Assembly: GCA_025360185.1 (NCBI GenBank)
Contig: JANYCR010000053.1
Coordinates: 1-13,076, forward strand
Direction: 5' to 3'
DNA: 13,076 bases
DNA from: Leptospiraceae bacterium
GTDB taxonomy: Bacteria > Spirochaetota > Leptospiria > Leptospirales > Leptospiraceae
Within the stretch, counting starts at the first letter, position 1. Each line of letters starts with the position of its first letter. The notes below the pieces were generated by a model. It was not told the origin of the DNA and ran no database searches. It saw nothing but the letters and a program-made list of their open reading frames with translations. The translations under genes were made by a program, and so were the position numbers. This document shows positions 2,614 through 4,925 of this stretch, piece by piece.

Positions 2614-3685
2614 TAACAAGAAAATCAAAGTATTCATTGTAGATGATCAAAAGATCGTTCGAAATGTAATTAGAAAAATTATTACCAGTGATCCACAAAT
2701 CGAAGTTATCGGTGAGGCTTCTAATCCTTTCGAGGCTAGTGAACTTATTCCAGAATTAGAGCCTGATGTTCTTACTCTAGATGTAGAAATGCCTCGAATG
2801 GACGGAGTAGAATTTTTAAGAAAACTCATGCCGCAATACCCCATTCCCGTAATAATGGTGAGTAGCACAACCGAAGCTGGATCTGAAAAAGCTATTCTCG
2901 CTATGCAATATGGAGCGGTTGACTTTGTCACTAAGCCGGACGGCGGAGCGTCTACTCTCGAGTCAACGCAAGTAGAATTAATTCAAAAAATTAAAGCTGC
3001 ATCAACTATCAATATTGATAGATGGTTAAAACAACTAAAATACAAATCGCTTCCATTAATCCCAAATCCAATGGCTGGCAAAAGTGGAAAAAGTAAATAC
3101 AACCTGATTGCCATTGGTGCGTCCACCGGAGGAGTAACTGCAATTCGCCAATTACTGTCTACTGTTCCGAAGGATTTTCCGTGCATACTGATTACTCAGC
3201 ATATGCCTCCAGGATTCACTGCAACGTTTGCAAAAGGAGTCTCTAAAGACTTTAAGTTAGATGTTAGAGAAGCAAAAGACCAGGACACAATTCAAGTAGG
3301 CAGAATTTATATAGCTCCCGGTGACTTCCATTTAGTGGTGAATAAAAGAAATGGAATAAATCAAACAGTTGGATTAACGCACTCAGAAAAAGTAAATGGA
3401 CATAGACCTTCTGTAGATGTCCTATTTCATTCAATTGTCGAGAATAAACTTGCAGCAGAGACAATTGGAGTTATACTGACCGGGATGGGCATGGATGGAG
3501 CAAAAGGACTTCTAGCAATGCGTGATGCGGGAGCAAGAACCATTGGTGAAAGTGAGCAATCTGCACTTATATACGGGATGCCAAAAGTAGCATATGATAT
3601 TGGCGGTGTTGAAGAGCAGCTTCCTCTTTCTATGATGGTGCCCAAGTTAAAAAACTATTTGAATTATTCAGGTCAATATGTCTGA
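2606..3685 (+). CDS. cheB: Chemotaxis protein-glutamate methylesterase CheB (receiver + methylesterase)
   Basis: - N-terminal receiver: 'KVFIVDDQKIVR', 'VLTLDVEMPRMDG', 'PVIMVSS', 'VDFVTKP'.
- C-terminal CheB methylesterase with catalytic-triad contexts 'GASTGG', 'ITQHMPPGFT', 'GMGMDG'.
- Start overlaps the cheA stop by 8 nt (atggctaa). Confidence 0.92.
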   Translation: MANNKKIKVFIVDDQKIVRNVIRKIITSDPQIEVIGEASNPFEASELIPELEPDVLTLDVEMPRMDGVEFLRKLMPQYPIPVIMVSSTTEAGSEKAILAMQYGAVDFVTKPDGGASTLESTQVELIQKIKAASTINIDRWLKQLKYKSLPLIPNPMAGKSGKSKYNLIAIGASTGGVTAIRQLLSTVPKDFPCILITQHMPPGFTATFAKGVSKDFKLDVREAKDQDTIQVGRIYIAPGDFHLVVNKRNGINQTVGLTHSEKVNGHRPSVDVLFHSIVENKLAAETIGVILTGMGMDGAKGLLAMRDAGARTIGESEQSALIYGMPKVAYDIGGVEEQLPLSMMVPKLKNYLNYSGQYV

Positions 3686-4925
3686 CAAAATACTACTCTA
3701 TAGCAAAGACGAAAATGTAAGAGAGCAAGTGAAATCCTATGTTAGCGATCTTATATATGAATTTAGCATAACGGATAATATCGATCAGCTTCATTCTTAT
3801 TTAAAATCAGAAGAATCCTGGTTATTAATTTATGATTTTCTAGAAACATCAAAAGAGAATCAAAAAAACCTTGCAAACCTATTAGCTGATTACCCATTTC
3901 AATTAGTTATTCTATTAATTGGTAGAGAAGAAGGGGATGAATTTCTTTTAATGATGGAAAATTATAATGTCTATGACATCGTTGCGTACCCTATTTATAA
4001 ATTCAAATTACATTTTGCCATAACAAAAGCAGTTAGCTACGGTAAGGTAATATCCAAGATTTCTGATTTCAAATCAAACGAAAAGCAAGTCTTCGAGTCA
4101 ATGATTAAAGTATTTGATTGGAGAAAAGAACTCGATACCAGGAAAGTAGAATCCCTGGCTAATGAACTTATACACCAAATCAATATTAGCTTCTTTCATG
4201 GAAGCGGACTTGGCTCTCTCATAAGCACACTGAGTATTTTATTTTCAAAAGCAAAATTGGACGAAGATAAAAAAGCCTACATGGTGCACGAAAAAATTTA
4301 CCACCTTCTCAAAGACAATTATGACGAAATTTTAAAACTAAGTGATAGCCTAACAAAGACGCAAGAAATACTTGCTGAAAAGGATTATTATACCGAAAAA
4401 ATGACTCTTAAGGATTTTTACAGTGCGTTAACCGCAATGGTAAAAGGAATGAAACCAATAGCTGGAATTAAAACCCAAAAAATAGTGATGGGAAATTTTC
4501 CAATAGAACTTGCATCTAAATCAATCATAGCAAGCCCCGAGAATTTAAAGCTAGTGTTTGACGAATTATTCACAAATGCAATCAAGTATTCAGAGGATGG
4601 CGATACAATCTATGTATTATTTTCTCATGATAAAACTGACTTGGGAATTCGAATACTAAACCCAGCCTATAAAAATTCTGATGGAACAGTGGGAATAACA
4701 GAAAGTAATGCGCATAAAATAATCGAACCATTTTTTCGTTTGACGAATGTAGTAGACGATAGGTTTATTCAGGAAACATTTCGATTTGGTTTAGGGCTTA
4801 CTGTTGTGAATAAAATTATTGATTTGCATAGAGGAAGCATTTCGTTTTATACCACGAATAATAATATGAGAAGGGATAATAATACAAAAGACGTTTGTGT
4901 TTGGGTTCGATTTCCTATTTTATAA
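3678..4925 (+). CDS. Degenerate receiver-like domain + histidine-kinase-like (GHKL) ATPase protein of unknown role, in the operon position where cheR is usually found
   Basis: - 415 aa; start overlaps the cheB stop by 8 nt (atgtctga).
- N-terminal ~120 aa has receiver-like strand/helix periodicity ('KILLYSKDENVREQV', 'WLLIYDFLE', 'QLVILLIG', 'YDIVAYP'), but the acidic pocket is 'SKDEN' rather than DD.
- C-terminus has clear HATPase_c boxes: N-box 'LVFDELFTNAIKYSEDGD', G2 'RFGLGLTVVNKIIDLHRGSISF'.
- No convincing H-box: 'LANELIHQINISF' is only a weak candidate.
- No SAM-methyltransferase (CheR) motifs. Confidence 0.6.
   Translation: MSDKILLYSKDENVREQVKSYVSDLIYEFSITDNIDQLHSYLKSEESWLLIYDFLETSKENQKNLANLLADYPFQLVILLIGREEGDEFLLMMENYNVYDIVAYPIYKFKLHFAITKAVSYGKVISKISDFKSNEKQVFESMIKVFDWRKELDTRKVESLANELIHQINISFFHGSGLGSLISTLSILFSKAKLDEDKKAYMVHEKIYHLLKDNYDEILKLSDSLTKTQEILAEKDYYTEKMTLKDFYSALTAMVKGMKPIAGIKTQKIVMGNFPIELASKSIIASPENLKLVFDELFTNAIKYSEDGDTIYVLFSHDKTDLGIRILNPAYKNSDGTVGITESNAHKIIEPFFRLTNVVDDRFIQETFRFGLGLTVVNKIIDLHRGSISFYTTNNNMRRDNNTKDVCVWVRFPIL

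Follow-up and report, generated by a model that had tools for sequence, protein, structure and literature searches.

The locus considered here raises the question of what is encoded by a 415-codon gene, referred to below as gene X (its product as X), that lies in a chemotaxis (che) operon of a Leptospiraceae bacterium (GenBank assembly GCA_025360185.1, contig JANYCR010000053.1; the window is the whole 13,076-nt stretch analysed). An earlier interpretation of the DNA made from its letters alone (the sequence-only reading) had put the gene between cheB and cheY, a position confirmed by the open reading frame (ORF) coordinates and the Pfam assignments of the neighbouring genes. The part of the answer held with most certainty is that the product appears to be a divergent hybrid response regulator, comprising a pseudo-receiver followed by an atypical histidine kinase (HK) core. 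Held with less certainty is that X seems to be tied functionally to the chemotaxis pathway, and specifically to the CheY encoded beside it. Least certain of the three is that the subfamily to which X belongs keeps the residues needed for ATP binding, together with a His at the H-box position.

Identity of Gene X

Gene X is a genuine, intact gene under purifying selection and no chance ORF, since homologues of equal length occur at identities ranging from 91 to 31% and the ratio of non-synonymous to synonymous substitution rates (dN/dS) lies between 0.02 and 0.10 in all three domains. Compared with two codon-aligned relatives (L001 and L008), dN/dS is 0.045–0.057 for the gene, 0.02–0.035 for the middle region, ∼0.025 for the C-terminal domain and ∼0.10 for the N-terminal domain, values that are rough because dS is near saturation; comparisons with two other relatives (L009 and L010) were unusable owing to saturation and indels.

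The sole Pfam match in the product is HATPase_c (PF02518; residues 287–413, E = 6e-13), with a score of 49.6 bits against a cut-off of 26.4, so that the bona fide HATPase_c C-terminus recognized in the sequence-only reading lies above the gathering score. No receiver, DHp (dimerization and histidine phosphotransfer), CheR, CheD, CheC, CheX or PAS domain was found in X by the Pfam scan, and the exclusion of CheR and of CheD/CheC/CheX in that reading extends to the rest of the window, where Pfam likewise finds none of these. A scan of NCBIfam returned only far-sub-threshold sensor-kinase equivalogs, and neither library has a curated family for X. The exact sequence of X was looked up and has no database record, so that comparisons were made with close relatives. 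An AlphaFold2 (AF2) model and Foldseek comparisons place a receiver (REC), a DHp-like region and a catalytic/ATP-binding (CA) domain in this order in one soluble polypeptide, in which a sensor or transmembrane region is not present. Of the functions suggested in the sequence-only reading, that of a degenerate sensor kinase comes close to the mark.

The N-Terminal Pseudo-Receiver

By sequence comparison the N-terminus of X is identified as a receiver homologue, because homologues with 20–35% identity align to X over their full length and carry the receiver domain PF00072, and because it scores 27.1 bits against a hidden Markov model (HMM) for which 128 canonical receivers from distant members of the family were used, compared with at most 11.5 bits for any of 1000 shuffles. 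The AF2 model predicts a (βα)5 fold for this part. The Pfam model Response_reg (PF00072) is itself not matched, either by the whole protein at E ≤ 0.01 or by residues 1–125 at E ≤ 10. In the quintet of residues on which receiver phosphorylation depends, S9 and K10 replace the acidic pair, I81 and G82 occupy the place of Thr/Ser, and Y104 that of Lys, leaving D53 as the only one kept; a receiver-like N-terminus with a non-canonical acidic pocket, as the sequence-only reading had described it, is thus borne out by both the profile score and the residues. The missing Mg2+-binding acidic pair, Thr and Lys argue against Mg2+-dependent phosphorylation of this domain in X.

In the family as a whole, canonical receiver residues (E/D-D, D, T/S and K) are found in 81–91% of members; these and all other family-wide residue-state counts given below were taken from an alignment of 176 family sequences. 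A neighbour-joining tree, calculated without bootstrap, sets the clade of the window and the genus Leptospira apart, with lineages that have canonical receivers in between, and receiver decay therefore seems to have happened at least twice.

The Histidine Kinase-Like Core

The C-terminal domain has the sequence features of a class I HK-type CA domain, with recognizable N, G1-like, F and G2 boxes (Table 1), and its best matches in both sequence and fold are HK853, CusS, HprS, VanS and LvrB. The canonical HisKA kinases HK853, CusS, HprS, CpxA and VanS share with X a CA domain having N, F and G2 boxes, and their DHp-CA core superimposes on the X model. They differ in the residue four positions before the Asn of the N-box, which is an invariant Glu in the X family and usually Asn in these kinases, in having the H-box H-E-L-R-T-P where X has H-Q-I-N-I-S, and in lacking the 6-residue Gly-rich insertion and β-hairpin found in the DHp loop of X, which for its part does not match the HisKA profile and has no sensor or transmembrane region. 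The Asp of the G1 box, D335, is found in most che-linked orthologues.

The sequence-only reading had entertained a kinase-like ATPase acting as a partner-switch or anti-sigma-type regulator, which would make X a Ser/Thr kinase, and the E-x-x-x-N motif formed by E296 and N300 is indeed common to SpoIIAB/RsbW and PDK-type GHKL kinases. All of the best matches are nevertheless class I HKs, the F and G2 boxes are HK-typical, the Pfam match is to HATPase_c and not HATPase_c_2, the 415-aa protein includes REC and DHp-like parts, and no STAS, anti-anti-sigma or sigma factor gene lies nearby in the operon. Together with the notion of a functional CheR replacement, which is dealt with below, this proposal is regarded as hardly credible.

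The middle helical region, residues 121–285, is the best-conserved part of the protein. In the AF2 model a long helix leaves the receiver and is followed by a helix at residues 157–191, a β-hairpin at 193–202, a helix at 205–233 and then the CA domain; the best Foldseek match of the model is LvrB (PDB 8vc9), ahead of the DHp-CA structures of HK853, CpxA and CusS. Two alignments put H166 on the H-box His. By BLASTP, X residues 120–383 align to the HisKA-CA core of the PAS kinase encoded further down the same operon, and by hhalign an alignment of the 176 family sequences matches 61 HisKA kinase cores with a probability of 99.8% (E = 4e-30). Outside the CA domain, H166 is also the only His to show conservation among che-linked orthologues (15 of 18), in which Q167, N169 and I170 are each present in at least 17 of 18. 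The verdict of the sequence-only reading that X has no clear phospho-acceptor His is accordingly half right: a candidate exists, and residues ∼130–285 match none of the profiles HisKA, HisKA_2, HisKA_3 or HWE. Directly behind the H-box, relative to HisKA, is a 6-residue insertion (F-H-G-S-G-L in X) that forms part of the hallmark of the family, Q/H-G-x-G-x-G, the glycines of which are nearly constant (G175 in 163, G177 in 171 and G179 in 173 of the 176 sequences).

LvrB resembles X in its REC-DHp-CA order and similar length and comes from the same phylum; it is only ∼15% identical to X and is not che-linked. The LvrB structure is, by its entry title, that of the phosphorylated-REC form, and LvrB presumably has a canonical HisKA domain, whereas X matches neither the REC nor the HisKA model of Pfam. 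LvrB is phosphorylated by LvrA, and most non-classical two-component genes of Leptospira encode hybrid response regulators (PMC5863495).

A candidate His followed by a residue that is not acidic, in an operon that encodes several receivers (those of CheB, CheY and the hybrid PAS kinase), could also be accounted for if X were a histidine phosphotransferase in the manner of Spo0B or ChpT, H166 shuttling phosphoryl groups between receivers without use of ATP; CheY∼P might be one such donor, with the receiver of the PAS hybrid kinase further downstream as acceptor. Spo0B and ChpT combine a DHp domain with a degenerate CA domain. The residues N300, K303, D335, G371 and G373 are conserved in the X subfamily and lost in Spo0B and ChpT, and the presence of the PAS kinase near X varies among lineages; a phosphotransferase of this kind is therefore considered very improbable.

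Linkage to Chemotaxis Genes and a Possible Role with CheY

Seventeen che loci with X were compared, from more than 10 species that include the clade of the window, saprophytic Leptospira and other Leptospiraceae metagenome-assembled genomes (MAGs). In the L. biflexa group, which carries this operon, orthologues of X occur in L. levettii and L. jelokensis (L005 and L007). The gene order cheW-cheA-(cheR)-(cheB)-X is found in all 17, with X directly behind cheA or cheB, and a CheY gene directly 3′ of X in 16, the seventeenth (L023) ending at X. Two loci without cheB still have cheA-X-cheY. Across lineages in which X is only 31–39% identical, the downstream CheY is 53–60% identical, and both H166 and D335 are retained.

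A second type of che cluster in Leptospira has the order X′b-X′-cheW-MCP-cheA-cheB-cheY-X″ (MCP, methyl-accepting chemotaxis protein) and thus includes three X paralogues; an example is found on the chromosome of Leptospira sp. 'Mane' (L029, positions 7475–17570), and others in L025–L030, L033 and L036. The upstream pair in these clusters has a non-receiver N-terminus and Pro at position 166, and the G1 box is absent. The motility che operon of L. interrogans is described as starting with a 'histidine kinase' gene, and cells are reported to reverse less frequently when it is disrupted (Lambert et al., 2015, cited in PMC13066512).

The reading that is favoured, tentatively and with somewhat less than even confidence, is that X, equipped with a pseudo-receiver, may play an auxiliary part like that of CheS3. 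X and the CheY encoded directly downstream would form a cognate pair, for which X would serve as a second, CheA-independent kinase or as a His phosphotransfer partner; X would bind ATP and then autophosphorylate on H166. The pseudo-receiver, presumably no longer phosphorylated, could act as a docking or regulatory module, and X in the lineage of the window would in this way have been freed from control by phosphorylation of its own receiver.

CheS3, encoded in the che3 cluster of Rhodospirillum centenum, has the architecture REC-pseudoREC-PAS-HK; it acts as a kinase on CheY3 and is itself under CheA3 control (PMC3868531). Like X it is a non-CheA kinase-type protein inside a che cluster, with one or more receivers N-terminal to a class I HK core and a pseudo-receiver (in CheS3 REC2, which has A191 and is not phosphorylatable). 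Its pairing with a single-domain CheY is both genetic and biochemical, that of X being known from gene order. CheS3 differs in that its REC1 is active (D54), that it contains a PAS domain, that its kinase is of the HWE type and has H453 as proven phospho-acceptor, and that its cluster has cheR3, whereas X has one degenerate receiver, no PAS domain, no DHp profile match and the Q/H-G-x-G-x-G insertion. The kinship of the two proteins extends to generic REC and CA domains only, as judged by the Pfam matches of X.

Residue States in the Family and Evidence Against a Conventional Kinase

The X family was delimited by a profile search of 1.8 billion representative sequences, which found at least 150 full-length clusters at 50% identity, with members of ∼410–430 aa. 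All members with an organism name are from Spirochaetota or Leptospira, and a scan of GTDB species genomes with 13 closer sequences as query likewise found full-length relatives only in Leptospirales and unclassified Spirochaetota. Most members carry both PF00072 and PF02518, and they are annotated as 'response regulator', 'ATP-binding response regulator' or 'hybrid sensor histidine kinase/response regulator'; automatic labels such as 'sensor histidine kinase' and 'response regulator' hide the degeneracy of the family.

A number of observations weigh against kinase activity of X, some of them made on X and its close orthologues and others on the family. The sequence case for a DHp domain is the first. 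No Pfam DHp family (HisKA, HisKA_2, HisKA_3 or HWE) is matched by X or six relatives at E ≤ 10; the score of X against a HisKA-DHp HMM is not above that of shuffles (rank 105 of 979); hhalign gives a probability of only 21% with the middle domain alone, the 99.8% score deriving largely from the CA domain; the same program aligns only the CA domain when a small orthologue alignment is used; and AF2 confidence is low for the helix that carries H166. We conclude that, to judge from its position and its predicted fold, the middle region would derive from a DHp domain, and that the sequence evidence for this is weak. Second, the motifs expected of an active kinase are altered. Thr replaces the middle Gly of the G1 box in X, three che-linked orthologues (L011, L020 and L022, all with canonical receivers) have Arg or Asn at position 166, and X has Gln directly after the candidate His (H+1), a position at which 153 of the 176 family members (87%) carry Asn (78), Gln (44) or Ser (31) and only 3 carry Asp. 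HisKA and HisKA_3 kinases use a Glu or Asp after the phospho-His in autophosphorylation. Third, within the family, His is found at position 166 in 45 of 176 sequences (26%), the remainder having Tyr, Glu, Arg, Ser or Asn, and the G1 Asp equivalent to D335 in 50 of 176 (28%), while some members have neither the His nor a functional receiver. Because of this third property the core function of the family probably needs no His phosphorylation, and by its residue states the family taken whole is not a conventional kinase family. A core that is not a kinase would be favoured by the altered residues at H+1 (Gln) and in G1 (Thr), by the weakness of the DHp evidence and by the family-wide loss of His and G1 Asp.

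One form that such a core could take is that of a DivL-like pseudokinase, which would sense or bind the phosphorylated form of the adjacent CheY through the DHp-like hairpin, with H166 being non-catalytic and the output going to another partner, such as CheA or the downstream PAS hybrid kinase. DivL of Caulobacter reads out a phosphorylated single-domain CheY-like regulator. The Gly-rich insertion sits in that part of DHp helix 1 with which response regulators make contact in canonical kinases, and a family that has lost the His in 74% and the G1 Asp in 72% of its members keeps the Q/H-G-x-G-x-G hairpin and the residues of the N, F and G2 boxes. Pseudo-HKs of the DivL/RetS type share with the X family an HK fold that can do without its phospho-His or has another residue in its place, Tyr in DivL and Tyr also in 26 of the 176 X-family sequences; members without His and without a canonical receiver exist, and the paralogues in the second type of che cluster have Pro at position 166 and lack the G1 box. 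X itself, however, keeps the His and the G1 Asp, and its subfamily has kept H166 and D335 over deep divergence, which pure binding would not need; DivL furthermore has a canonical HisKA-like DHp, PAS domains and no receiver, and for X no downstream effector is identifiable. A pseudokinase role is on this balance rather unlikely.

The conservation of an amide or hydroxyl residue at H+1 while the His varies would also be compatible with X acting as a dedicated CheY∼P phosphatase or phosphate sink, an HK scaffold in phosphatase mode that takes the role of CheZ, CheX or CheC. Known phosphatases of receivers work with a helix-borne Gln, Asn or Thr, and the phosphatase activity of HKs is independent of the His. 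CheZ, CheX and CheC domains are absent from the window according to Pfam, and X and cheY are adjacent wherever downstream sequence exists, i.e., in 16 of the 17 loci. The idea is speculative, and the HisKA phosphatase motif E/D-x-x-T/N beginning at H+1 is absent from X, in which the sequence is H-Q-I-N-I with Ile at H+4; nor is there a conserved acidic partner residue, position 163 being variable. A phosphatase or sink is accordingly thought to be decidedly improbable, and the auxiliary kinase or phosphotransfer partner of CheY described above, which accommodates the retention of both H166 and D335 in the che-linked subfamily, is still preferred.

A broader proposal embraces the family as a whole, namely that the Q/H-G-x-G-x-G proteins might constitute a Leptospirales-specific auxiliary chemotaxis class, not recognized before, with an HK-derived module that binds, dephosphorylates or reads CheY∼P, mostly without His phosphorylation, the X subfamily being a His-bearing intermediate and the receiver and His sites having decayed repeatedly and separately. 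This generalization seems unlikely as it stands; if true, it would add a new CheZ/CheX/DivL-like control element to spirochete che pathways. A stricter relationship between the two sites did not hold up. In the che-linked clade, as represented by 22 sequences, the His seemed to exclude a functional receiver and vice versa (either one, never both or neither), and this dissolved in 38 non-redundant members of the subfamily, in which the four combinations number 16, 9, 8, and 5, leaving a tendency only. A Fisher test of H166 against D335 was inflated by near-identical sequences and was not used as evidence.

As far as the libraries and literature were searched, the family, its Gly-rich DHp insertion, its restriction to this lineage and its che linkage are undescribed. 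Hybrid response regulators, kinases in che clusters and pseudo-HKs are already known, so that X is an uncharacterised variant, and no paradigm is overturned, since CheS3, LvrB and DivL provide precedents for each element. Non-classical two-component proteins are unusually numerous in Leptospira and its relatives, which also have several che clusters of unclear wiring. One HK-like family is now seen to sit in at least two types of che cluster, with up to three paralogues per cluster, and, being paired with CheY and variable in its phospho-His, ATP-binding Asp and receiver Asp, it offers a handle on pathway branching, whether by a second kinase, a phosphatase or a pseudokinase.

The Absence of cheR

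In the sequence-only reading X was held to occupy the usual cheR slot, and the methylesterase gene without a cognate methyltransferase was thought notable. That cheR is lacking from the window is upheld: Pfam finds no CheR, CheD, CheC, CheX or CheZ domain there, and the best tblastn match of E. coli CheR to the window has an E value of only 2.4, while the same query finds CheR in two of the other loci (L020 and L031). X has neither of the CheR domains PF03705 and PF01739 in the Pfam scan, nor a methyltransferase fold. The slot itself is another matter. In a high-GC Leptospiraceae MAG (L020, positions 6239–11664) the order is cheA-cheR-cheB-X-cheY with overlapping junctions, and since cheR and X coexist in this locus, X is no substitute for CheR; the X of this MAG has a canonical receiver, carries Asn at position 166 and lacks the G1 Asp. 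The idea that X replaces CheR functionally is for these reasons set aside together with the partner-switch proposal.

Within 10 kb, cheR was not found in 16 of the 17 orthologous loci, and in the 87% and 91% relatives (the latter JANMOF01) the upstream 10 kb contain a further cheW and MCP gene and no cheR. None of the best 120 of 7518 CheR matches listed comes from the 5.16 Mb contig of a relative. In L. interrogans cheR is unlinked, its locus tag being far from the che operon (PMC13066512), and the second type of Leptospira che cluster also has no cheR, so that a cheB without a linked cheR is normal for this group and not, as had been supposed, remarkable. X has no standard HisKA assignment and no cheR was found just upstream of the MCP gene, within 10 kb in close relatives, findings in keeping with the sequence-only reading; the architecture of X is nonetheless that of a known class, the hybrid response regulators abundant in Leptospira.

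Organization of the Window

The window has a GC content of ∼36%, and its features are collected in Table 1.

Table 1. Genes of the window and features of gene X, with positions in the 13,076-nt stretch.
Feature	Positions	Strand	Evidence
MCP gene, 3′ end	2–364	+	Pfam; relative L001
cheW	374–862	+	Pfam
cheA	871–2613	+	Pfam (Hpt, dimerisation, HATPase_c, CheW-like); translation
cheB, upstream neighbour of X	2606–3685	+	Pfam (receiver and methylesterase); translation
Gene X, 415 aa, pseudo-REC, DHp-like region and CA (hybrid-response-regulator architecture)	3678–4925	+	ORF; same-length homologues; dN/dS
8-nt overlap of X start codon with cheB stop (ATGTCTGA)	3678–3685	+	Read off sequence; ORF coordinates
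Degenerate (pseudo-)receiver, residues 1–120	3678–4037	+	Receiver HMM; AF2 fold
D53 codon (GAT), receiver phospho-Asp position	3834–3836	+	D in 161/176 family members
Helical region with DHp-like predicted fold, residues 121–285	4038–4532	+	AF2 model
H166 codon, motif L-I-H-Q-I-N-I, candidate phospho-acceptor; H+1 is Gln	4173–4175	+	BLASTP; hhalign
H174-G-S-G-L-G179, hallmark Q/H-G-x-G-x-G	4197–4214	+	Family alignment; insertion in BLASTP and hhalign
HK-type CA (HATPase_c) domain, residues 286–415	4533–4922	+	Pfam
N-box E296-L-F-T-N300-A-I-K303-Y-S	4563–4592	+	E296 and N300 in 176/176; K303 in 172/176
G1-like box D335-G-T-V-G339 (middle Gly of DxGxG is Thr)	4680–4694	+	HMMER alignment to HK853
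F-box E350-P-F-F-R354	4725–4739	+	P351 in 175/176; F352 in 172/176; R354 in 174/176
G2 box R369-F-G371-L-G373-L	4782–4799	+	G371 and G373 invariant; HK853 alignment
cheY, 120 aa, canonical D8/D9, D52, T82 and K104	4943–5305	+	Pfam; translation
Major-vault-protein-like gene, 829 aa, directly after cheY	5402–7891	+	Pfam
ORF, 128 aa	7918–8304	+	No Pfam or NCBIfam family
PAS hybrid kinase, four PAS domains	8317–11067	+	Pfam
LytTR regulator and 7TMR-DISM/His_kinase pair	11071–13030	−	Pfam

The sequence-only reading had inferred 8-nt overlaps on both sides of X. The overlap with cheB is present and is taken, from its arrangement, as indicating translational coupling, and the cheA/cheB junction likewise overlaps by 8 nt; that with cheY is not, the X stop codon being followed by a 17-nt spacer with AAGGA before the cheY ATG, as it is also in the gene calls of relatives. 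A mechanically assigned TTG start for cheY at position 4895 is unsupported and was rejected in favour of the ATG at 4943 behind AAGGA, as in the relatives.

The CheA of the operon is short (580 aa), and its P2 (CheY-binding) domain was not matched in the Pfam scan. The counterpart of the MCP gene in the 87% relative (L001, positions 2108–6580) encodes a multi-HAMP protein of 1490 aa. The C-terminus of the MCP is lysine-rich and is without an NWETF-like pentapeptide.

At the other end of the window, the kinase of the LytTR and 7TMR-DISM pair is an ORF of 407 aa that begins inside the 7TM profile (position 15 of 205), and its extracellular part may be missing or may lie past the window end; in the 87% relative (L001, positions 17305–20345) an extra 300-aa gene is found between the LytTR gene and the kinase gene, with the 7TMR-DISMED2 part separate or fused. 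The equivalent of the PAS hybrid kinase in that relative (positions 14847–17303) is of the MASE1-PAS kind, with only ∼49% identity in the core, as against four PAS domains in the window, and the sensor end of this downstream hybrid kinase therefore varies among close relatives.

Between cheY and the PAS kinase is a gene for a protein of 829 aa that resembles the eukaryotic major vault protein (MVP), matching MVP_shoulder (3.5e-24), Vault_3 and Band_7 in Pfam and, in the PDB, MVP only (E = 4e-11), with which it is collinear and of similar length. An MVP-like bacterial gene within a che operon is unusual; in the clade of the window it is 90–96% conserved and similarly placed, whereas the versions of the operon in the genus Leptospira are without it. 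The 128-aa ORF that follows is always found behind the MVP-like gene in relatives, with 83–84% identity, and may encode a partner of the MVP-like protein.

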